DNA of 64,000 bases, taken from assembly GCA_021799435.1 (NCBI GenBank), contig JAJZAN010000003.1:15253-79252 (forward strand), in the 5' to 3' direction. A model generated the notes under the pieces. That model saw only the letters and a program-made list of their open reading frames with translations, was not told the origin of the DNA and ran no database searches. The stretch comes from Bacillota bacterium (GTDB lineage: Bacteria > Bacillota > Sulfobacillia > Sulfobacillales > Sulfobacillaceae). Position 1 is the first letter of the stretch; every line of letters starts with the position of its first letter. Below, in pieces: positions 5,202 through 42,097 of the stretch. Position numbers and translations under genes: made by a program.

Positions 5202-5452
5202 TGCTCGACCCGCACCCGCACCCGCGCCAGTTCCATGACCGGATTGGCCAATACCTCATCGGCCATCCGCTGAACCAAGCGAGCCGCCTCTCCCGCGTCG
5301 GGCGCATCCACTGTCAGCTGGATATGCCGGCCGATGCGAATGTCACCGATAGGAAACTCCATGTGTTGCAGCACGCCCTTGACGGCCTCACCGGCCGGAT
5401 CCAAAATCTCCGGCTTCAGGATTACCGTGACTACCGCGTGGAACTCAGGCAT
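5198..5452 (-). CDS. purS: phosphoribosylformylglycinamidine synthase subunit PurS
   Basis: 84-aa protein sitting between purC and purQ and overlapping both, which is the typical PurS position and size. Confidence 0.85.
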   Translation of the reverse strand: MPEFHAVVTVILKPEILDPAGEAVKGVLQHMEFPIGDIRIGRHIQLTVDAPDAGEAARLVQRMADEVLANPVMELARVRVRVEQ

Positions 5453-6149
5453 TCTCCATCACCCTCCTGAGGATTTCCTGATAGGCATCCTCCACGCGCC
5501 CTAAGTCACGGCGAAACCGATCCTTGTCCAACCGCTCGCCGCTGGTTTGATCCCAAATGCGGCAGGTGTCCGGGGAAATCTCGTCCCCCAGCTTCAAGAG
5601 TCCAGCATCGTTCCAGCCAAATTCCAGCTTGAAATCCACCAGCACCAAGTCGCGTTGCAAGAAAAACGGCTTCAGAACCTGATTCACGCGCAGCGCTTCC
5701 TGCCGAAGACGGGCGACCAAGTCCGAACTGGCCAGGCCCAAGAGGCGGATATGGTCCTCGTTCAGCAAAGGATCCCCGAGCGCGTCATTCTTGTAATAGA
5801 GCTCAAGTACCGGATCGTCCATAGGGGTGCCTTCAGGAATTCCTGTGCGCTGGTTGAGCGAGCCAGCCACCCAGTTGCGCACCACTACTTCCAGGGCAAT
5901 CATGTTGAGGCGTTCCACCAAAAGGTTCCGATCATCCAATTGCTCCACAAAGTGGGTTTCCACGCCGTGGTCTTTGAGCCACTGGAACAAGCGAGCCGAT
6001 ACGGCGGCATTCACCACGCCCTTATTCTGAATCTGGGCCCTCTTTTGACCGTTAAACGCGGTGGCCGCATCCGTGAACTCGACGCGCACCTCCTCTTGGC
6101 GGTCGGTGCTGTAAACCCGCTTAGCCTTGCCTTCATACAGTAACGGCAT
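5445..6149 (-). CDS. purC: phosphoribosylaminoimidazole-succinocarboxamide (SAICAR) synthase
   Basis: N-terminal LLYEGKAKRVY and LIALEVVVRN-type core. Operon context. Confidence 0.93.
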   Translation of the reverse strand: MPLLYEGKAKRVYSTDRQEEVRVEFTDAATAFNGQKRAQIQNKGVVNAAVSARLFQWLKDHGVETHFVEQLDDRNLLVERLNMIALEVVVRNWVAGSLNQRTGIPEGTPMDDPVLELYYKNDALGDPLLNEDHIRLLGLASSDLVARLRQEALRVNQVLKPFFLQRDLVLVDFKLEFGWNDAGLLKLGDEISPDTCRIWDQTSGERLDKDRFRRDLGRVEDAYQEILRRVMENA

Positions 6150-31598: not shown

Positions 31599-32869
31599 TA
31601 CGACCCTCCTATCAGCCCATAGGAACGGGCTAAAATCTCCACGGGATGTACGGGCTCCCGATCCGTTACCGTCTCTATCTGCAAGCCCGCCAGCGCACAA
31701 TCAGAGCAGGCGTGGGTGTCATGGCGAGCCTGAAACCGCTCGGTGAGTTTCTGCGACACTTGCAGCGACTCCTCATAGTACTCCGCCTTCAAACCCCAAG
31801 TGCCATCGATTCCCGCACAACGGTCAACCATTTCCACCTCGCACCCGTCAATGCTCTCCAGCAATTCCTTGGCCGCTCGCTTCAACCCTTGAGCCTTGGT
31901 GTGGCAGGAGAGATGATAGGTCACGGAACCCGGGCTGGACTCGAACTCCTTCTTCAGGGTGCCCTTCTTCATGGCCGAAGCCAAGTACTCAGTAATATCC
32001 CGGGTGTGCTGCGCCACCAGCTTCGCTTCTTCTGATTCCACCAAAGTTGGGTAGTCCTGTTTCAGCAACAAGGCACACGTGGGTTGGAGGGCTAAGATCG
32101 GCTTGCCCGCCCTGACATACGGGGCCAACAGGTCCACATTAGCCCGTGCACGGCGCAGTGCACCGTCTATGTCTCCCCCGTCCAGGGCTGGCATACCGCA
32201 ACACACCTGGCCTTTTGGAACCACCGCACGGATGTTGTTGTGCTTAAGTACCTGCATAGCCGCTTGGCCAATGCCTGGTTCGTGGTACTCCACCGTGCAG
32301 GTGGAAAACAGCACCACATCCACTTCGTCCAAATTGGGCACCGATTGGGGCTGGTGCTTGGCGGCCCAGTCCGAAAACCGCGTGGGAGCGAAACGCGGCA
32401 AGTGACGCCGGTGGTCAATTCCGTAAATGCGCTCCATTAACCGTCGCAATCCGGTATTCTTGACCGACCAGTTGGCCAGCCCAGGAGCGATTTGACCCAT
32501 CCGCCCCACCTGCTCGGGATTCCCCAGAAAGCGGTCGGTGCGGCTAATACCCTTCTTTTTGGCGCGAATGGCCTTAGACCGAAGCATCAGGCGGGGAAAA
32601 TCTAAATCAAAGCGATGCGGCGGAATATAGGGGCACTTCATGTAGCACAGTTTGCACTGAAAGCAGAGGTCTGCCACATGATCGGCCTCTTCGGTCGTGA
32701 CCTTCGATGCATCATCGTCATAACTCTCAACGATTTGAAACAACGCCGGAAAAGAGGGACAGAGATTGTAACACAGCCGACACCCATTGCAGATGTCGAA
32801 GGCCTGCTGCATGTCCTGATGCAGAGCCTCTTGGTTCCAATATTCGTCACGATGCGGGTTGTACTCCAA
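31598..32869 (-). CDS. (Fe-S)-binding oxidoreductase with 2x[4Fe-4S] ferredoxin motifs and CCG domains (HdrD/GlpC/GlcF-like)
   Basis: CNGCRLCYNLCP and CFQCKLCYMKCP, plus two CCG-type motifs (VCCGMP; DRCAGIDG). Confidence 0.85.
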   Translation of the reverse strand: MEYNPHRDEYWNQEALHQDMQQAFDICNGCRLCYNLCPSFPALFQIVESYDDDASKVTTEEADHVADLCFQCKLCYMKCPYIPPHRFDLDFPRLMLRSKAIRAKKKGISRTDRFLGNPEQVGRMGQIAPGLANWSVKNTGLRRLMERIYGIDHRRHLPRFAPTRFSDWAAKHQPQSVPNLDEVDVVLFSTCTVEYHEPGIGQAAMQVLKHNNIRAVVPKGQVCCGMPALDGGDIDGALRRARANVDLLAPYVRAGKPILALQPTCALLLKQDYPTLVESEEAKLVAQHTRDITEYLASAMKKGTLKKEFESSPGSVTYHLSCHTKAQGLKRAAKELLESIDGCEVEMVDRCAGIDGTWGLKAEYYEESLQVSQKLTERFQARHDTHACSDCALAGLQIETVTDREPVHPVEILARSYGLIGGS

Positions 32870-32922
32870 ACCGTTCCCCCCTCTTCACACGAAAGGGGGC
32901 TTGCGCCCCCTCCGTCCGACCG

Positions 32923-33345
32923 TTAGTCTTCGAGATTTTCGAGGCCCTTGGTGAAGCGGCCGGCGTGGCTCTTCTCAGCCCGAGCCAAGGTTTCGAACCA
33001 CTCCGCAATTTCGTCGAATCCTTCGTCGCGAGCGGTCTTGGCAAACCCGGGATACATCTGCGTGTACTCGTATGTTTCGCCTTCGATGGCGCTCTTCAAA
33101 TTCTCCTCGGTCGTTCCCACCGGAACCCCCGTCACCGGGTCTCCCACTTCTTCCAAGAACTCAAAGTGTCCGAATGCGTGTCCGGTCTCCCCTTCCGCTA
33201 CGTCGCGGAATAATCCGGCCACCTCCGGACGGCCTTCCACGTCCGCCTTTTGAGCGAAGTACAGGTAGCGCCGGTTCGCCTGGGATTCCCCAGCGAACGC
33301 CTCTTTGAGGTTTTCGTGCGTCTTCGAGTTAAGCAGTTTAGCCAT
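32923..33345 (-). CDS. rbr: rubrerythrin-family di-iron protein (no rubredoxin domain)
   Basis: [20 protein letters not shown]...[10 protein letters not shown]...[10 protein letters not shown]..., typical ExxH four-helix-bundle ligands. Confidence 0.9.
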
Positions 33346-33379
33346 GGCGATTGCCTCCCAATTAAAGGTGGTTTCTAGC

Positions 33380-33394
33380 TAAGAATGATTCTAA
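33380..33394 (-). promoter_or_regulatory. Fur/PerR-box-like 7-1-7 inverted repeat
   Basis: Minus strand TTAGAATcATTCTTA versus the B. subtilis PerR box TTATAATnATTATAA (from memory). The inner AGAAT-c-ATTCT is a perfect palindrome. It overlaps the putative -10 of rbr. Confidence 0.5.
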
Positions 33395-33416
33395 TGTAAT
33401 GCCCTATAGAAGACAA
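33388..33416 (-). promoter_or_regulatory. candidate sigmaA promoter of the rbr operon
   Basis: Minus strand TTGTCT-N17-TAGAAT, about 43 nt upstream of the rbr ATG. Confidence 0.45.
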
Positions 33417-33423
33417 TGTTTGC

Positions 33424-33455
33424 AAAAGAAAGACGTCCCAATTCCGGGGACGTCT
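33424..33455 (-). terminator. rho-independent terminator after the glycosyltransferase gene
   Basis: Minus strand AGACGTCCCC-ggaatt-GGGACGTCT followed by TTCTTTTG. Confidence 0.75.
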
Positions 33456-33468
33456 CAAGAGGTTATGG

Positions 33469-34152
33469 CTAGCGAGAGCGTTTGCGCGCGGTGCGGCGCG
33501 CTTGGCGGTTCGGCGGCGTCGCAGGAGTCATTGCCTTCTCCTCCGGCTCCACCGCGAGACCGTTCGATTCCGGCATCAGCAGGACAGACTTCTTGTGCCC
33601 GAGACGGACTTGCTTAGCCCAATAAATGCGAATGTCCGGAAAATCCCACCAAAAGTGCACATCCTCTCCCACCCGATCTGCGTGAAACAGGTAGTCCAAG
33701 GGTTGCCGCAAATAGACAAACCCGAAACCAGCCATCCCCACTTCTGAATATGGGGCCATCTCCTCCAGTTCCGCTGGCGTGTAGTGATACGCCTTATCCG
33801 GTTCGCGGGACCGCATCAGGACCGGGACACCATTGCCCATCATGTAATTGGCGGCAATGCACCGTTCGTGAGTTTCTGCCCAAGTCAGCGCCTCCACAAT
33901 GGTGCGGTAACTGTCGGGCGGAATCAAAATGTCGGAATCCACCCACAGGACCCAGGGCCTCTCCGGAGGCGCGACATACTTGCGGATGCGCTCGACAACC
34001 ATATTTCGACATCGGGGGATATTCGACGCTTCTGTGGTCACCACCATGACCGATCGCCCCATTTCCCGACCGACCTGCATGAGCTCCAATAGAGTTTGCA
34101 CCACGGCACGCGAATCGTGTGTGGGTATGGCAATAATCAATGTCTCTGACAT
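33469..34152 (-). CDS. small GT-A-like glycosyltransferase with basic C-terminal tail
   Basis: N-terminal beta-alpha start LIIAIPTHDS, DxD-like LWVDSDILIP, no signal peptide or TM, C-terminal PPNRQARRTARKRSR. AAGGGCGG RBS. Confidence 0.6.
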   Translation of the reverse strand: MSETLIIAIPTHDSRAVVQTLLELMQVGREMGRSVMVVTTEASNIPRCRNMVVERIRKYVAPPERPWVLWVDSDILIPPDSYRTIVEALTWAETHERCIAANYMMGNGVPVLMRSREPDKAYHYTPAELEEMAPYSEVGMAGFGFVYLRQPLDYLFHADRVGEDVHFWWDFPDIRIYWAKQVRLGHKKSVLLMPESNGLAVEPEEKAMTPATPPNRQARRTARKRSR

Positions 34153-34224
34153 GGCAGCCGCCCTTTATACGTTGAATTGCAACCGCAGCCCGCTTGAGTC
34201 CGCGGGACCGGCGGCGCGATGCCA

Positions 34225-34233
34225 TATGGTATG
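34225..34233 (-). promoter_or_regulatory. sigmaE/sigmaK-like -10 element upstream of the glycosyltransferase gene
   Basis: Minus strand CATACCATA (CATAnnnTA), 73 nt upstream of the ATG and downstream of the copy A terminator. The upstream AC is at a non-ideal N18 spacing. Confidence 0.25.
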
Positions 34234-34273
34234 TGATCCACCCCCAACGGGGTACAGGAACCCGTCCAGGCGC

Positions 34274-34309
34274 AAAAAAATCCTCCCGTGTAGAACAGGC
34301 GGGAGGATT
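34274..34309 (-). terminator. rho-independent terminator after Cys/Thr-rich paralog A
   Basis: Minus strand ATCCTCCCG-N11-CGGGAGGAT followed by TTTTTTTG. Confidence 0.85.
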
Positions 34310-34315
34310 TGGGTG

Positions 34316-34879
34316 TTAGAGGGGCGTGGTGCCACTCTGTGGCGGAAACAGCGCACTGGGCGGACACGGCAGAACCGGTCCCACTTGACCGCAGGCCGGG
34401 GGCGTGCAGAACCCGTACGTTGGCACCAAAATCTGAACAGTGGCCGTGGTCTGGAACAAAACACACAACGTAATGGTACAGCTGATGGTGTCGTTGGGCA
34501 GGTTTACGCACGTGCAGGTCCCCGACACAATGGTGCAGGACGGCGTTGTCCCCATAGGATTGTAGAGCGTCACGGTTGCGGTGGTGTAAGCCGTCGACGT
34601 CATGCTCTTGCCATCCGCGCAGGTCACCGTGTATTGGGCGCCAATGACGAACGTGATGTTGCTGTAGTCAGTCGTTGTCGCGGCGGTAATGGACCCGACC
34701 GTGCAATCCGTAGACGAGGAGGTAAGATCAACGGCGCAGCTGGTCACCGCGCACTCTTTACACCAAACGTCATCGGTCAACGACTGCGTCATTGTGACGG
34801 TCTGAATGCAGGAGTCATACACCTTGTCGACGGTAATACAGTCAATTCCCGTGGGCTTTGGGCAAATGCTTTCGTCCAA
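34316..34879 (-). CDS. Cys/Thr-rich protein, paralog A (187 aa; 16 Cys, 38 Thr), no signal peptide; family unknown
   Basis: Aligns end to end with the 36634-37194 product. I prefer TTG 34879, which has a GAAAGGAAG RBS about 10 nt upstream. The same GAAAGGA-N9-TTG arrangement occurs in paralog B. The ORF-track GTG 34888 sits only 1 nt after the RBS. Confidence 0.8.
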   Translation of the reverse strand: MDESICPKPTGIDCITVDKVYDSCIQTVTMTQSLTDDVWCKECAVTSCAVDLTSSSTDCTVGSITAATTTDYSNITFVIGAQYTVTCADGKSMTSTAYTTATVTLYNPMGTTPSCTIVSGTCTCVNLPNDTISCTITLCVLFQTTATVQILVPTYGFCTPPACGQVGPVLPCPPSALFPPQSGTTPL

Positions 34880-34925
34880 CGCGTTCACTTCCTTTCTAGG
34901 AAAGCCTCATAGCGGCCTCTCACGG

Positions 34926-34955
34926 TATAATATGGAGCCTGATCCAAAAGGTTCC
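34926..34955 (-). promoter_or_regulatory. sigmaK-like (mother-cell) promoter motif of paralog A
   Basis: Minus strand GGAACCTTTTGG-atcaggctc-CATATTATA, which equals AC-N16-CATAnnnTA. The 12-mer and the -10 are shared with paralog B. Confidence 0.5.
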
Positions 34956-34983
34956 ATGGCGATTCCGTTGTCCCGCCACAAAC

Positions 34984-35006
34984 AAAGCCGCCCCAAGGGC
35001 GGCTTT
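34984..35006 (-). terminator. hairpin terminator after the 35041-35619 ORF
   Basis: AAAGCCGCCC-caa-GGGCGGCTTT. On the minus strand it is followed by GTTTGTGG, and on the plus strand by TGAG. Confidence 0.6.
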
Positions 35007-35040
35007 TGAGATATCCGTGCACCACGGATTAGCGCTGGTG

Positions 35041-35619
35041 TCAGCCTCGCCGTGGTGCGGACTGCGGAGGACGGATCCGCGAAATGGCTCCCCCAGAGGT
35101 GGAGCCACGCACCATGCTCTGCGATTGATGCACCACAACCACCCCTTTGGCGGCTGCCGCCGGCCGCGGCTGCACGCGGGCGGGCTTGGCTTTCGCAACC
35201 GGGGTGCTCGGTTTGTTCCGCACAATTTCCACCCCCTCCCATCGCTCCCGTTCAGGGTGTCGCGTGGCAGCCCACAAAAAAAGCCCCCAGGCCCATCCCG
35301 CCAGAAGCCGATTGACCTCCTCTTCATCGCCCACAGGCACGGTCGCCTCTACCACATCCCGATCCCAGCTGACCGGGGCGCGCACCAAGGTCACGCCTGC
35401 GGCTTGGGCCATGAGCTGTCCTGCCCGCCGTGCCGGCCAGCGGCTCGTCGACGCAATGGTAATCCGGCTCCCTTCCCCTTGAACGACTCGGACCGCCAAT
35501 TCTGCCATATCGCGAGGACGGGCAAGATCCCAAGGAGCCAACGCCCGCAGGAATCGCTCCCGCAGCGTTGGCTCCAAGTCGGTTATGACATAGATCCCAA
35601 AAAGTTCCACGGCTATCAC
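35041..35619 (-). CDS. hypothetical protein (orphan; start uncertain)
   Basis: Codon usage looks coding but there is no RBS before GTG 35619. The segment RITIASTSRWPARRAGQLMAQAAGVTLV weakly recalls the C-terminal half of DUF218/YdcF. The C-terminal tail is low-complexity and basic. Confidence 0.35.
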   Translation of the reverse strand: MIAVELFGIYVITDLEPTLRERFLRALAPWDLARPRDMAELAVRVVQGEGSRITIASTSRWPARRAGQLMAQAAGVTLVRAPVSWDRDVVEATVPVGDEEEVNRLLAGWAWGLFLWAATRHPERERWEGVEIVRNKPSTPVAKAKPARVQPRPAAAAKGVVVVHQSQSMVRGSTSGGAISRIRPPQSAPRRG

Positions 35620-35652
35620 CCGGGATACTTTATGTGGAAATACTGGAAAAGG

Positions 35653-36420
35653 TTACGAATTCGGCCCGATAAAGAGTTCCGAAATCGCCACGCCTGATCC
35701 CCACGGTGCCACTCCGACACCAATTTGCGTCTCATAGGGGTTCAAGATGTTGGACCGGTGCGGCGGCGAGGCCATCAGCATCGCAAACGCTTGGCTCACG
35801 GACCCTGCCTCGGCGATGTTCTCGGCACCCATGCCTTGGGCTTGAATCCCAGCCGCCTGTTCCATCTGGACCGGCCAACCATACCCGGCCATGTCGCTGG
35901 TGAAGGGTCCGTTCGCCAAGGTCACAGCGCGCTCCTGAGCAAGCTGCATCAGGGTGGGGTTAATGGTGTAGGGCTTGAGACCGGCCTGTTGCCGGGCTTG
36001 ATTGATGAGGTTAATCATTTGCATGGCGCTGTTGCTGGCAGTTGTCGTGGAGCCGGACGTTGCCGCGCTCCCCGATCCAGAACCGGTGCTGCCAGTAGAT
36101 GGTGCAGAGCTGCTGGAGCTCGACGACCCTGAAGGCGCACTGGGCGTCACCGTAGGCGGTGCAGACGGCGGCGGCGGTTGTGGTGTCGGCTGCGGCGCCG
36201 GTTGAGGTGCCGGCTGGGATACCGTCACCGTACCACTGGAAGCACCCTGATTGACCAAGGCGATGGTCTGGTAAACCTGATTTACCGTGGCAACGGGCAA
36301 ACGTGCTGCGGTTTGAATAGACGGGGCTGACGGGACGGGGGTGATGGCAGCGGGGGCCGCTCCCATCGTCACCGGCAGGCCAGCGGCGACGAGCAGGGCT
36401 GTGAAATAATTCATGCGCAT
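35653..36420 (-). CDS. secreted CAP/SCP (YkwD-like) domain protein with Pro/Ser-rich linker
   Basis: Signal peptide MRMNYFTALLVAAGLPVTMGAAPA, linker PAPQPAPQPTPQPPPPSAPP...SSSSSSS, and CAP core MINLINQARQQAGL...MLMASPPHRSNILNP. GGAGGA RBS. Confidence 0.8.
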   Translation of the reverse strand: MRMNYFTALLVAAGLPVTMGAAPAAITPVPSAPSIQTAARLPVATVNQVYQTIALVNQGASSGTVTVSQPAPQPAPQPTPQPPPPSAPPTVTPSAPSGSSSSSSSAPSTGSTGSGSGSAATSGSTTTASNSAMQMINLINQARQQAGLKPYTINPTLMQLAQERAVTLANGPFTSDMAGYGWPVQMEQAAGIQAQGMGAENIAEAGSVSQAFAMLMASPPHRSNILNPYETQIGVGVAPWGSGVAISELFIGPNS

Positions 36421-36588
36421 ATCCTCCGTTCGAACTCAATTTTAGGTAATTCTCAACCTAGCCTACCGGAGCCCATACCCCGCGGCAATCAAAGGAAACC
36501 CTCGTCTCACCGCTTGAGACCGGGTTACCCGTGCCACCCGGCAAAATACGGCGTCTAAAGGACTATTTGGATTGAATACCACAAGTTG

Positions 36589-36618
36589 GAAAGCCCTCCC
36601 ATGGCTGGGAGGGCTTTC
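36589..36618 (-). terminator. 12-bp hairpin after Cys/Thr-rich paralog B (weak U-tract)
   Basis: Minus strand GAAAGCCCTCCC-agccat-GGGAGGGCTTTC, then CAACTTGTGG. Confidence 0.55.
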
Positions 36619-36633
36619 TCGGACCAGACCCGA

Positions 36634-37194
36634 TCAGCTTCCGGCTTGCGGCGGGAACAGCGAGCTGGGTGGGCACGGCAACACGGGACCGACTTGCCCG
36701 CAGGCAGGCGGGACACAGAACCCGTAGGTGGGAATCAGCAGCTGCACGGTCGCCGTGGTTTGGAACAACACACACAAAGTCAACGTGCAGGTAATGTCGC
36801 CGTTGGGCAGATTCACGCACATACAGGTACCTGAGACAATGGTGCAAGACGGCGTGGTTCCTGCGGGATTGTACAGCGTGACGGTCGCAGTCGTGTAAGC
36901 CGTAGAAGTAATCATCGCGCCGGACGAGCACGCCAGCGTGTATTCCGCACCAATGATAAACGTGATATCGCTGTAATCAGTGGTGGTAGAGGGTACAATG
37001 GGCCCCGGAGTGCACGTCGACGCAGTCAGATCAAACGTGCAGCTGGTGACGGTGCAGTCATCCGCGGGAGTCGTCTTGGTCGTGGTGATAGTCTGGATAC
37101 AGGAGTCATACACCTTGTCGACCACGATGCAATCGATTTCAGTAGGAGTCGGCAGAGCAGCGTCTGGGTAGGAGCCGGGAGTCACAGTTGCCAA
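36634..37194 (-). CDS. Cys/Thr-rich protein, paralog B (186 aa; 14 Cys), no signal peptide; family unknown
   Basis: I prefer TTG 37194, with GAAAGGA 9 nt upstream. The ORF-track start 37326 would run through the promoter motif into the upstream gene. The C-terminal ~90 aa are nearly identical to paralog A. Confidence 0.8.
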   Translation of the reverse strand: MATVTPGSYPDAALPTPTEIDCIVVDKVYDSCIQTITTTKTTPADDCTVTSCTFDLTASTCTPGPIVPSTTTDYSDITFIIGAEYTLACSSGAMITSTAYTTATVTLYNPAGTTPSCTIVSGTCMCVNLPNGDITCTLTLCVLFQTTATVQLLIPTYGFCVPPACGQVGPVLPCPPSSLFPPQAGS

Positions 37195-37247
37195 GGTTGC
37201 ACATCCTTTCAGCAGAGATCCGTGATGAATAAGGCGCTCATCATTAG

Positions 37248-37277
37248 TACGATATGGATCGCATGCCAAAAGGTTCC
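37248..37277 (-). promoter_or_regulatory. sigmaK-like (mother-cell) promoter motif of paralog B
   Basis: Minus strand GGAACCTTTTGG-catgcgatc-CATATCGTA (AC-N16-CATAnnnTA), in the 100-nt gap after the amidohydrolase stop. Confidence 0.5.
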
Positions 37278-37294
37278 CGCGTTGGAAATTCCCG

Positions 37295-38443
37295 CTATCC
37301 GGCGTCGTGCACCAAACGCCCCCCAATCCAGATTTTCTCTGCGCGGGCTTGCAGAGCGGTCAGAGGGTTGTCGGACCACAACACGATATCCGCTTCCCTC
37401 CCTACCGTGAGTGCACCAACGCGGTCTTGAATGCCCACAATCTGAGCGGGGTAAATGGTGACCGCCTTCAAGGCATCGTCGAGGCTCATACCGTGCCGCG
37501 TGGCGACCCCCGCGTAGACGCTGAGATATTCGGATGGCACCACCGGGTGGTCGGAAGCGATCGCCACCACCACGCCGGCCTCAGCCAATCGCGCCGGCGT
37601 CCAGAACCCCTTATGCCGCAATTCGGCCTTAGTGCGGGCGGAGAAGGATGGCCCGGTCACTACGGGTACCCCGTAGCGCAAGATTTCGTCAATGACGAGA
37701 TCCGCTTCCGTTCCATGGTCAATGACAGCCCGCACCTTGAAAGGCGCAATGGTCCGCAGAGCTGTCAGGATATCATCGGCCCGGTGGGAATGAATGCGCA
37801 GCGGGATGTCTCCCCGTATCACCATGCCCAAAGCTTCCAAGCGGGGGTTGTAGTCCGACAGCTTGGTCGACTGCTCGAGCTGGTACCGGCGCGCTCGCTC
37901 CAACCATTCGCGCAATACGGCGGCCACTGCCGGACGCGATCCAGGGCGCCGTTTTTGCCCGCCGTGGACCCGGATGGGGTTCTCCCCCATGGCGACCTTC
38001 ATGCCCGCCGCGGCCACCATCACCATCTCTTCCACGGTGCGTCCCGCCATATGCACCACACTTCCGATCCCGCTGATGACGTTGGCGGAGCCCATGGTGA
38101 TAAAAGCCGTGGTCACCCCGCCCCGCAGAGCCTCGTAAATAGCCGGATCGGCCGGATTAATCCCGTCCAGGGCGCGGACGTCGGCGGTCACGGGGTCAGA
38201 CGTTTCATTCACATCTTGGCTGGCCAGGGTCTCACCGCTGGTGGAAAGGCCTACATGACTGTGGGCGTCGATAAATCCCGGCAACACCCATCCGCCGTGG
38301 GCGTCAACCACGGGCACCCCGGTTGGCGGTTGATAGTTTTCCTCCACCGCCTGGAGAAGTCCCGCCTCGTCCACCAAGAGCCCACCGCGTTCCATCTTCA
38401 CCGATTGGCCGTCCCAAAGACGCGCGTTCACTAACGCCCACAT
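37295..38443 (-). CDS. amidohydrolase-family metal-dependent hydrolase
   Basis: LPGFIDAHSHVGL (HxH), ...HSHRADD... and ASDHPV. COG1228-like. Confidence 0.8.
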   Translation of the reverse strand: MWALVNARLWDGQSVKMERGGLLVDEAGLLQAVEENYQPPTGVPVVDAHGGWVLPGFIDAHSHVGLSTSGETLASQDVNETSDPVTADVRALDGINPADPAIYEALRGGVTTAFITMGSANVISGIGSVVHMAGRTVEEMVMVAAAGMKVAMGENPIRVHGGQKRRPGSRPAVAAVLREWLERARRYQLEQSTKLSDYNPRLEALGMVIRGDIPLRIHSHRADDILTALRTIAPFKVRAVIDHGTEADLVIDEILRYGVPVVTGPSFSARTKAELRHKGFWTPARLAEAGVVVAIASDHPVVPSEYLSVYAGVATRHGMSLDDALKAVTIYPAQIVGIQDRVGALTVGREADIVLWSDNPLTALQARAEKIWIGGRLVHDAG

Positions 38444-38444
38444 A

Positions 38445-39458
38445 TCAAAGCCTCCCAGATACCACTTGCATGGTCACGCGAATGTCTCCCACCAGGCGGC
38501 CCGCATGGTTGCGAATCTCGGGATGAATCAGCGATTGGAGATTCATCCGCTCCTCCGTGCTCAGCACACCTATCTGCTCAAGAGTCGCCGTCACCAGGGT
38601 GGGGATAACCCGGCTGTTGCCGTCGTCCACCTTCACAGCTAGTCCCAGTCCCTTGTCCGGGATTCCTAGGCAAAAGACAGCTTCTGCACCGCCCTTGGAG
38701 ACAAAGCGGTGGTTGCTGGCCTCCGCCAATGTCACCTCCAAGCGTCCCGTTCCCGATACCAATTCCGGATGCAGCCGCATGGCCTCGGAAATAATCATGG
38801 CAGCGCCTGCCTTGCTAGTGTCCAATCCGCGCGGATCCACCAGCCGTGCATAGCTGTAGGCCATGCGAGTCAAAGGCATGTAAAAGCACGGCACCCCGCA
38901 GCCATCCACCCCGGTATACAAGCTTTCGGACTCCATTCCGCTCATATACGCAACATTGGCGCGAATAGCTTGCTGAACCGGATGTTCAGGCTTTTCGTAT
39001 CCGGCCAGAGGGGCATTTAAAGCCCGCGCCAAGGTCAGCATGCCCGTGTGCTTGCCGCTGCAGTTGTTATGCAGGACAAATGGATCCTGCCCCTTGGCTA
39101 CCAAAGCTAGCGCGGACTCCCGGTGACTGGGCGGATGTACGCCGCATATGAGATCTTGGGGTTCCGCATGAATGCGATTCAATAAATCCTGCACCAGTTC
39201 CACATGGAAGGGCTCACCGCCGTGAGACGCGCAGGTGATGGCCACCTCTCGAGATCCGAAACCAAACTGCTCGGCGGCTCCGGATTCGATAATCGGCATC
39301 GCCTGAAACGGCTTGGCGCTTGAGCGCCAAAAGGTCGCCCGATTGGGGTTCCCAAACCAAAAGCGCACCTGCCCTACGCTGTCGACCACGGCAACATCGG
39401 CGTGCACCCGGCTCTCCATCCGGTCTCCACGCCATAACTCAACGGCTACGTCCGACAT
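38445..39458 (-). CDS. asparaginase (PF06089-type, Rhizobium etli AnsA-like)
   Basis: WRSSAKPFQAMP...CASHGGEPFHV...NNCSGKHTGML, as I recall for this family. Confidence 0.7.
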   Translation of the reverse strand: MSDVAVELWRGDRMESRVHADVAVVDSVGQVRFWFGNPNRATFWRSSAKPFQAMPIIESGAAEQFGFGSREVAITCASHGGEPFHVELVQDLLNRIHAEPQDLICGVHPPSHRESALALVAKGQDPFVLHNNCSGKHTGMLTLARALNAPLAGYEKPEHPVQQAIRANVAYMSGMESESLYTGVDGCGVPCFYMPLTRMAYSYARLVDPRGLDTSKAGAAMIISEAMRLHPELVSGTGRLEVTLAEASNHRFVSKGGAEAVFCLGIPDKGLGLAVKVDDGNSRVIPTLVTATLEQIGVLSTEERMNLQSLIHPEIRNHAGRLVGDIRVTMQVVSGRL

Positions 39459-40216: not shown

Positions 40217-40582
40217 CTACAATTCTGTTAACCCAAAGCTAATGACGATGGCTTGATTGACGCGCGCCATGGTTTCGCTCTTGAGATGCGCGATACGTTC
40301 CCTCAGACGTCGTTTGTCAATGGTGCGGATTTGCTCCAACAAGATGACCGAATCCCGATCAAGTCCGGATTCGGCCGCTCTGACTTCCACGTGAATGGGC
40401 AAACGCGCTTTCAAAACCTGAGAAGTCACGGCGCACACAATGGTTGTAGGGCTGTAGCGATTGCCGATGTCGTTCTGCAATATCAGCACCGGCCGCACCC
40501 CGCCCTGCTCGGACCCCACCACCGGGGACAGATCCGCAAAAAAAATGTCGCCCCGGCGTACTGTCACGTCTGACCCGGCCAC
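40217..40582 (-). CDS. mazF: mRNA interferase MazF/EndoA (PemK family toxin)
   Basis: RGDIFFADLSPVVGSEQGGVRPVLILQNDIGNRYSPTTIV is near-identical to the B. subtilis EndoA core. Confidence 0.93.
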   Translation of the reverse strand: MAGSDVTVRRGDIFFADLSPVVGSEQGGVRPVLILQNDIGNRYSPTTIVCAVTSQVLKARLPIHVEVRAAESGLDRDSVILLEQIRTIDKRRLRERIAHLKSETMARVNQAIVISFGLTEL

Positions 40583-40584
40583 GA

Positions 40585-40839
40585 CTACTCCTTGGGTAAC
40601 CCTACGAGATCCCAGCGTTCTTCCGCCAAGGCGGAATTTAGAAAGCCCATTTCCTGGTATCCCTGAATCAATGCTTGGCGAATTTCTTGCCGACGCTGCT
40701 CCGCGAGATAATACTCCACACTCTCGCGTATCAGTTCACTACGATGTCGTCCTTCTCCCGACGCCACCTGATCCAAAGCATCTACGAGATGATGCGGTAA
40801 CCTGACCACCACGCGGCGGTTGTCCGTCAAAAGGCCCAC
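40585..40839 (-). CDS. mazE: ribbon-helix-helix antitoxin MazE/EndoAI
   Basis: VVVRLPHHLVDALDQVA...RSELIRESVEYYL...QGYQEMGFLNS parallels B. subtilis EndoAI. Confidence 0.85.
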   Translation of the reverse strand: MGLLTDNRRVVVRLPHHLVDALDQVASGEGRHRSELIRESVEYYLAEQRRQEIRQALIQGYQEMGFLNSALAEERWDLVGLPKE

Positions 40840-40942
40840 CTCTTTTTTCCCGTATCTGGCTCATATTATAACTTTCGGCGAAATCCGGGTCAATTGGCTG
40901 TATTGCCCGGTAGAACGGCCCTGCACGCCCGCTGGCGCCGTC

Positions 40943-42097
40943 TCACGATTGGAAGCGGTCCCAATGCCGGGGAACCCGAGCACTGATGCTGGTCAACATC
41001 TCATAGCTGATGGTGTCTGCCCAGTCCGCCAGTTCTTCCATAGTAACTTCCGCCGCCCCGTCCCGGCCCGCCAGCACCACCACATCGCCTGGCTGGACGG
41101 CGAGGCCCTCCGGAACCCGCACGGTCAGCTGGTCCATGGAGATTCGACCGACTACCGGGCAGCGGCGTCCATGAATGAGAACTTCGGCCCGATTGGACAA
41201 CGCCCGTCGGTAACCGTCCGCATATCCGACCGCGACCGTAGCAATCGTCTCGTCCGCTCCAGCCCGGTAGGTATGGTGATACCCAATCGCAAACCCATGT
41301 GTCACCCGCTTTACTTGCGTCACGCGACTAACCCATGTCAGCGCAGGCGTCAAAGCTGGCGCGCCTGCATAAGGAACGGCTCCGTACAGCCCTAGGCCCA
41401 CGCGCACCATCGTGAAGTGAGTCCCCGGAAAGCGCAGGGTGGCAGCGGTATTGGCCAAGTGGATGTCGGGAGGCAATGCCGTCTGGGAAGCGCGGATGGC
41501 TTCAATCACCTCCAGAAACTGACTGAGCTGCTGACGCGTGGGCAGCGTGTCAGGTACGTCGCTGCATGCGAGATGCGACATGAGTCCCTGCCATTTCACC
41601 AGGGGGTGGTTGACGATCCGAGGGACCCAAATCTGCAATGCCTCCGCGGGTGTCACTCCTAGTCGCCCCATGCCGGTATCCACTTTCAGGTGAACCCGCA
41701 CCCGCCGGCCCAGCCGCTCGGCCGCACGCACCAGTGCTTCCCACCATGCGTCGTGGAACACCGTCACATCGAGATTCATTTCGAGGGCTGCTTCCGCTTC
41801 GCCGGCATTGACCGCTCCCAGCACAAGAATGGGGGCATCGATGCCGCCGTCGCGGAGCGCCCGGCCCTCCAGCACGGTCGCCACGCCTAAAGCGCCCGCG
41901 CCTGCCTCCAGCGCTGCCCGGGCCACCCGAAGCGCGCCGTGTCCGTATCCGTCAGCCTTCACCACCGCCATCACCTTGACCTGTGATCCCACCACGTCGC
42001 GAAAGAGACGGGTATTTGCGCGGACAGCTTCCGGATCGATCCACACCTCGGTGCCACGCTTGTCCTCCATCATGATGTCAGCCCTCTCTCTTGCCAT
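40943..42097 (-). CDS. alr: alanine racemase
   Basis: MAVVKADGYGHG (PLP lysine), ...VGYADGY... and ISMDQLTV. The start may instead be the ATG pair at 42073/42070. Confidence 0.93.
   Translation of the reverse strand: MARERADIMMEDKRGTEVWIDPEAVRANTRLFRDVVGSQVKVMAVVKADGYGHGALRVARAALEAGAGALGVATVLEGRALRDGGIDAPILVLGAVNAGEAEAALEMNLDVTVFHDAWWEALVRAAERLGRRVRVHLKVDTGMGRLGVTPAEALQIWVPRIVNHPLVKWQGLMSHLACSDVPDTLPTRQQLSQFLEVIEAIRASQTALPPDIHLANTAATLRFPGTHFTMVRVGLGLYGAVPYAGAPALTPALTWVSRVTQVKRVTHGFAIGYHHTYRAGADETIATVAVGYADGYRRALSNRAEVLIHGRRCPVVGRISMDQLTVRVPEGLAVQPGDVVVLAGRDGAAEVTMEELADWADTISYEMLTSISARVPRHWDRFQS

Follow-up and report, generated by a model that had tools for sequence, protein, structure and literature searches.

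Two paralogous genes, copies A and B, lie on the minus strand of the window (the whole 64-kb stretch of DNA that was analyzed), and both are preceded by the same 12-nucleotide block at a fixed distance from a CATAnnnTA element. This arrangement raises the question of which sigma factor reads the two sites, and whether the shared block also serves a second regulator. Our comparisons make it quite probable that the two blocks are sigmaK-type, late mother-cell promoters of duplicated BMQ_0737-like genes in a late-sporulation spore-surface locus. RNA polymerase with sigmaK would read GAACC as the −35 element and, 16 nt from its AC, CATAnnnTA as the −10 element, and the T-rich stretch directly after the −35 element would be part of the promoter anatomy. 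Each promoter would drive one copy of the duplicated gene for a Cys/Thr-rich beta protein, and a third sigmaK-type site would drive the neighboring 189-aa gene. The cluster, to which a CAP protein of YkwD type and a putative glycosyltransferase also belong, would thereby constitute the spore-surface locus of a Sulfobacillus-like acidophile. The reading of the sites by sigmaK, the start sites, and the late timing are all points that we infer from sequence.

SigmaK-type sites in the cluster

Promoter A (34926..34955, minus strand) reads GGAACCTTTTGG-atcaggctc-CATATTATA from 34955 to 34926, and promoter B (37248..37277, minus strand) reads GGAACCTTTTGG-catgcgatc-CATATCGTA from 37277 to 37248, with nine nucleotides between the blocks in each case. 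In promoter A, the −35 pentamer GAACC (34954-34950) lies inside the 12-mer GGAACCTTTTGG, and the −10 element CATATTATA covers 34934-34926; in promoter B, the corresponding elements are GAACC at 37276-37272 and CATATCGTA at 37256-37248. From the end of the −10 element to the start codon there are 46 nt between promoter A and copy A and 53 nt between promoter B and copy B. Transcription from promoter A is predicted to start at about 34921-34917. Promoter B itself starts approximately 18 nt past the stop codon of the upstream amidohydrolase gene, without a terminator in between. Both blocks had been reported at these minus-strand coordinates in an initial, sequence-only reading of this DNA, and they were found there again when the window sequence was re-read; its further claim that both copies give exactly AC-N16-CATAnnnTA was borne out by a pattern scan of the 64-kb window, in which this arrangement occurs at promoters A and B only (0.24 expected from shuffled sequences). 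A sigma-70 promoter scan gave nothing convincing, the weak TTGGCA-18-AATGAT being present at copy B only and not conserved at copy A.

When both spacings (AC-N16/17) were allowed, the window held four strict consensus matches, three of which fall within one 2.4-kb cluster and stand each upstream of a gene on the coding strand. The fourth, at 6115-6142, is antisense inside a purC-like open reading frame (5445-6149). The third clustered site, absent from the sequence-only reading, occupies 35626..35655 on the minus strand and has the form TAACC-N..-CATAAAGTA with AC-N17 spacing; the N17 scan returned it as ACCTTTTCCAGTATTTCCACATAAAGTA at 35653-35626. Its −35 element overlaps the stop codon of the CAP/YkwD-like gene, and its −10 element lies about 15 nt before the GTG start of the 189-aa gene, with a Shine-Dalgarno sequence, GGGTGA, between the two. 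The order of CAP stop codon, sigmaK-type site, and 189-aa gene is conserved in nine loci.

A further CATAnnnTA had been claimed ahead of the adjacent glycosyltransferase-like gene. The element itself, CATACCATA, is indeed present at 34233-34225, but the nearest upstream AC stands at N18 rather than at N16/17 (AC-N18-CATACCATA, 34225..34252, minus strand). Spacing at the orthologous site in L001 is N17, and no comparable site was seen before the glycosyltransferase-like gene in L011. We therefore treat this off-consensus site as a weak candidate. Its spacer can form a hairpin, ACCCCgttGGGGT in the window (34234-34252, minus strand) and CCGCCcggaGGCGG in L001 (6624-6640), the structure being kept while the sequence differs.

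Conservation in relatives and across Bacillota

AC-N16/17-CATAnnnTA was found approximately 45 to 65 nt upstream of the start codon in 13 of 17 related loci of the Sulfobacillus clade. The cultivable Sulfobacillus thermotolerans Kr1 has its orthologous promoter at 5869-5896 of L003. When 15 upstream regions were aligned, the only invariant or near-invariant columns were (A)C of the −35 element, CATA(T)..TA of the −10 element, and GAA(A)GGA.G of the ribosome-binding site. The last of these, invariant in the 15 orthologues, corresponds to the Shine-Dalgarno sequence GAAAGGAAG of copy A (34888..34896, minus strand) and to its equivalent before copy B, GAAAGGATG. A minority of homologues, both in the Sulfobacillus clade and among the distant loci, have no recognizable site.

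Most distant homologues (27 to 36% identity, in genomes of 36 to 77% GC) likewise retain a near-consensus site at a similar distance. The loci surveyed span Desulfotomaculaceae, Pelotomaculum, Thermaerobacter, Moorellales, Syntrophomonadaceae, and Bacilli such as Sutcliffiella and Halalkalibacter. Within 280 nt upstream of the gene, the strict pattern was matched in 28 of 79 further loci and the relaxed pattern in 67, against a background of 0.012 and 0.048, respectively, per 280-nt segment. The motif is thus approximately 18- to 30-fold over background upstream of homologues, a figure to be read with the provisos that the background rate comes mainly from coding flanks, so that chance matches in intergenic DNA may be more frequent than it suggests, and that relatedness among many of the compared loci keeps the counts from being independent events. 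The −35 pentamers across the family include GCACA, TCACC, GAACC, GAACA, and TAACA, which can be written k-m-A-C-m (G/T-A/C-A-C-A/C), and a position matrix built from 81 unique sites reads G-k-m-A-C-m-n-T-T-T ... CATAnnnT(A/G). These 81 promoter sites could serve as a starting set for predicting sigmaK regulons in spore-formers that have received little study.

We also scanned all representative genomes (596 Gb) for GGAACCTTTTGG-N9-CATA, which gave more than 119 matches in unrelated taxa; among the matches listed, two on one contig occurred only in L001. As the number of matches is about that estimated by chance for 16 specified bases, the scan is unusable as a regulon test.

Sigma factor choice and a possible second regulator

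In B. subtilis, sigmaE and sigmaK promoters have their −10 element in common (Eichenberger et al. 2004, PMC517825). The sole difference lies at position 4 of the 5-nt −35 element, which is C for sigmaK and T for sigmaE and is read by Arg in sigmaK and by Gln in sigmaE, both residues being conserved among endospore-formers (PMC517825). The discriminator is C in 15/15 Sulfobacillus-clade sites; C rather than T at this position makes the sites sigmaK-type, not sigmaE-type. Like the sigmaK promoters of B. subtilis, they combine a CATAnnnTA −10 element with a 5-nt −35 element bearing C at position 4 (k-m-A-C-m), a spacing of 16 to 17 nt, and a location before coat-type genes. They differ in that the host is a Sulfobacillus-like organism of ~60% GC, whereas the consensus derives from B. 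subtilis, and in that the window family adds a conserved G before the −35 element and a T-tract after it. The sigK gene is not within the 64-kb window; according to the literature, all spore-formers surveyed have it, Sulfobacillus acidophilus among them.

The transcript data at hand are assembled contigs of flat depth. Among the shallow metatranscriptome contigs that map to the window, one ends at 34933, inside the −10 element of promoter A, and promoter B lies within another. For a relative grown in pure culture, the RNA-seq contigs continue without a break across the promoter region of its locus (L003). Altogether, phylogenetic footprinting, the C discriminator, recurrence, and the coat-like products lend strong sequence-based support to the sigmaK-type promoter signature proposed in the sequence-only reading. 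Promoters A and B represent an already known promoter type, and their regulatory annotation is solid but ordinary.

Three other explanations of the blocks carry little weight. Since the −10 consensus is common to both factors (PMC517825), the sites could be read by sigmaE, or by sigmaE and sigmaK both, but this is very unlikely, because the −35 element of these early mother-cell promoters (k-m-A-T-A) has T where the present sites invariably have C. In the larger set of 105 upstream regions from across spore-forming Bacillota, AC stands at N16/17 before 44 of 48 strict −10 boxes and AT before none (0/48), the corresponding counts for 94 relaxed boxes being 87 and 8. It is less probable still that GGAAC is a −35 element read by an ECF stress sigma factor, or that an unrelated repressor has its operator in the block, with no role in sporulation. 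GGAAC does resemble the −35 element of many ECF promoters. However, neither CGT nor GTT occurs at ECF spacing (15 to 18 nt) in promoter A or B, the remoter orthologues drop GGAAC and retain AC plus CATAnnnTA, and the gene products are homologues of a spore coat protein. Finally, the two genes are paralogous, and the shared block might be a nonfunctional leftover of their duplication; we regard this as effectively refuted. In a pairwise alignment of the regions upstream of copies A and B, the 12-mer, TCCATAT..TAC, and the Shine-Dalgarno block GAAAGGA.GTG are the only conspicuous matches, and the flanks do not align. Four-fold degenerate sites in the two coding sequences are 37% identical (28/75), which amounts to saturation. 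That the 12-mer is identical although synonymous sites are saturated indicates selection on the 12-mer rather than a neutral duplication remnant, and the same elements are conserved in orthologues and distant homologues. The earlier statement that the leaders have diverged around a selectively conserved block therefore holds.

A more substantial variant accepts the sigmaK promoters and adds that GGAACCTTTTGG is also bound by a second regulator, GerE-like or another small DNA-binding protein, that tunes late expression; we consider this improbable, though less so than the three explanations above. In its favor, four promoters from two species (those of both window copies and both L001 copies) have the 12-mer without a single difference despite the saturated synonymous sites, and GGAAC[CA]nTTTG[CG] persists in 11 of 15 Sulfobacillus-clade promoters. 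Against it, the block beyond AC is not invariant, the rest of the 12-mer varying among orthologues (GGAACCTTTTGC, GGAACCAATTGC, GGAACACTTTGC, GGAACATTTTCC, GCACATTATCCC, and TCACACCTC), and family promoters in unrelated lineages commonly have a T-tract 3 to 5 nt after AC, an observation that points to a preference of the polymerase or of DNA shape rather than to a lineage-specific regulator. The GerE box has the consensus RWWTRGGYnnYY. Neither this 12-nt consensus nor its TRGGY core was present on either strand in ~130 nt around promoters A and B and the site of the 189-aa gene, and no SpoIIID-like site was found at the promoters examined. Thus, the late coat-gene context is that of the GerE-modulated sigmaK promoters of B. 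subtilis cot genes, but the GerE box is missing here. In addition, gerE has been described as largely or wholly confined to bacilli (bioRxiv 10.1101/2022.02.25.481979), and Clostridium is reported to lack GerE. The suggestion that the invariant 12-mer may bind a regulator of the GerE type accordingly finds no backing, given the lack of a box, the degeneration of the 12-mer in orthologues, and the family-wide T-tract. The G-GAACC-T-TTT-GG of the window is best explained as one instance of the family preference after the −35 element (n-T-T-T), and the sigmaK promoter reading needs no second regulator.

Within the 64-kb window, the exact 12-mer GGAACCTTTTGG has three copies against 0.00 expected. 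The third (5918-5929, minus strand) lies inside the purC-like coding sequence (at DRNLLVE) and has no CATA at the right distance; we regard it as a coincidence. With one mismatch, the 12-mer also occurs at 35597-35608, where the reading frame of the 189-aa gene begins (M-E-L-F-G-I).

The coat-like family and its gene neighborhood

Copy A (34316..34879, minus strand) encodes a Cys/Thr-rich protein of 187 aa with a TTG start and a predicted all-beta structure, a distant homologue of the BMQ_0737 family. Copy B (36634..37194, minus strand) encodes 186 aa, also from a TTG start, and shares 71% identity with copy A; the gene order (paralogue, CAP gene, 189-aa gene) marks copy B as the ancestral one. 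Neither paralogue has a Pfam match. Homologues at 48 to 81% identity were found only in genomes and metagenomes of Sulfobacillus and related Bacillota, with mine drainage and hot springs as the main sources; a profile search widened the family to Peptococcaceae, Desulfitobacteriia, and Thermoanaerobacterales, and an exhaustive search returned 206 clusters at an E value of 1e-3 or better. Independent duplications of the family have occurred in several lineages, some of them in tandem (L144, 3001-3681/3836-4492; L016, 5109-5588/6001-6468), and the FK3.bin120 genome has four or more dispersed copies (L175, L177, L181, and L184).

Matches to NCBIfam NF052457 (BMQ_0737 family morphogenetic spore coat protein) were obtained for 25 of 27 family members, significant but below the cut-off. 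Copy A itself scores 23.4 bits (E = 5.7e-5, residues 86-185), short of the curated cut-off of 71 bits. Two proteins bridge the gap, both matching at full length on either side and both carrying the same Cys-containing motifs: P0145 (2.4e-21 against the window-family profile and 61 bits against NF052457) and P0213 (1e-10 and 59 bits, respectively). Judged by these profile matches, the relation of copies A and B to BMQ_0737 is one at the superfamily level, established through the bridging proteins. Motifs shared with BMQ_0737 of B. megaterium QM B1551 are CI..KV.D.C, the LC.P.GT..C type, A.V.LLV...G.C.P, and CPP..LFPPQ, and the homologues in Bacilli also bear sigmaK-type sites. BMQ_0737 is a protein of the outermost spore layers of Bacillus megaterium (PMC4656864), and as far as that account goes, an outer-layer location and a need for layer integrity are known only for the B. 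megaterium protein. The two also differ in that the Sulfobacillus subfamily is Thr-rich and is known here from sequence, whereas the B. megaterium protein has been localized. An AlphaFold model of copy A (pLDDT 83.7) has very long beta strands of 15 to 24 residues, and a Foldseek search with this model gave no PDB match at an E value below 1e-3; the predicted structure may represent an undescribed fold.

The genes around the two copies are consistent with a spore-surface role. The CAP-domain protein (35653..36420, minus strand) is YkwD-like, with a TIGR02909 match below the cut-off, and such a gene adjoins the coat-like gene in nearly all Sulfobacillus-clade loci; linkage of the two was seen in L001 to L016, L139, L144, and L145. 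Among the distant loci (L146 to L225), a CAP gene lies within 1.5 kb of the coat-like gene in 35 of 80. This linkage over very distant spore-formers suggests that the CAP protein and the BMQ_0737-like protein form a functional pair. For the 189-aa gene (35041..35610, minus strand), which is preceded by a sigmaK-type site of its own, neither Pfam nor NCBIfam gave a family match. A 227-aa open reading frame (33469..34152, minus strand) shows a faint, subthreshold similarity to glycosyltransferases (GT2, GT21, and Anp1) around a DSD motif. In other lineages, the neighbors include GT2/GT4 glycosyltransferases, NeuB/DegT/epimerase sugar genes, Spore_coat_YutH, and CAP genes.

Only a small number of coat proteins are known to occur in both bacilli and clostridia, and the literature notes a lack of coat-protein data for the remaining classes of Firmicutes. 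A family that has sigmaK-type promoters in many such lineages therefore qualifies well as a candidate conserved component of the spore surface. A bolder proposal, to which we give somewhat less than even weight, is that the BMQ_0737-like protein, often with a YkwD-like CAP protein, forms an ancient sigmaK-controlled spore-surface module of Bacilli, many clostridial lineages, Thermaerobacter, and Sulfobacillia, with promoters that carry the extended −35 element G-k-m-A-C-m-n-TTT, of which the 12-mer of the window would be one instance. If this is true, the BMQ_0737-like protein would be among the few outer-layer coat components conserved between Bacillota classes. For the acidophilic, bioleaching-associated relatives of Sulfobacillus, a lineage-specific pair of "hypothetical proteins" gains a regulatory annotation, together with the prediction that both genes are expressed late in the mother cell and that their products belong to the outer spore layers.

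Copy A is probably a separate transcription unit, since a terminator-like hairpin (GCCGCCCttggGGCGGC, then TTTGTTTG; 34979..35004, minus strand) lies between the 189-aa gene and promoter A, approximately 25 nt upstream of the latter. A second hairpin with a T-run, which resembles an intrinsic terminator, lies downstream of copy A (34274..34305, minus strand). The 213-nt intergenic region before the CAP gene (36421-36633, minus strand) contains no strict sigmaK-type site and no Rfam match, and an Rfam scan of 32000-39000 yielded nothing credible. Read-through from copy B into the CAP gene would meet a terminator-like hairpin at approximately 36616-36588.

Among the leaders (34880-34925 and 37195-37247 on the minus strand of the window, and those of L002 to L013), most have a hairpin that starts 5 to 10 nt past the −10 element. 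The stems differ by lineage, being AUGAUGA...UUCAUCA in copy B, AUGGGA...UCCCAU in L002 to L010, and GGCAG...CUGCC in L011 and L013; in copy A and its L001 counterpart, the hairpin involves the Shine-Dalgarno region instead. The hairpin may act as a 5′ mRNA-stabilizing stem, but its energy z-scores are modest (−2.3 to +0.8). Elsewhere in the window, genes for a MazF-like toxin, a CopG-like antitoxin, and alanine racemase are adjacent (40217-42097, minus strand), in what we take to be the alr-ndoAI-ndoA order of Bacillus subtilis.
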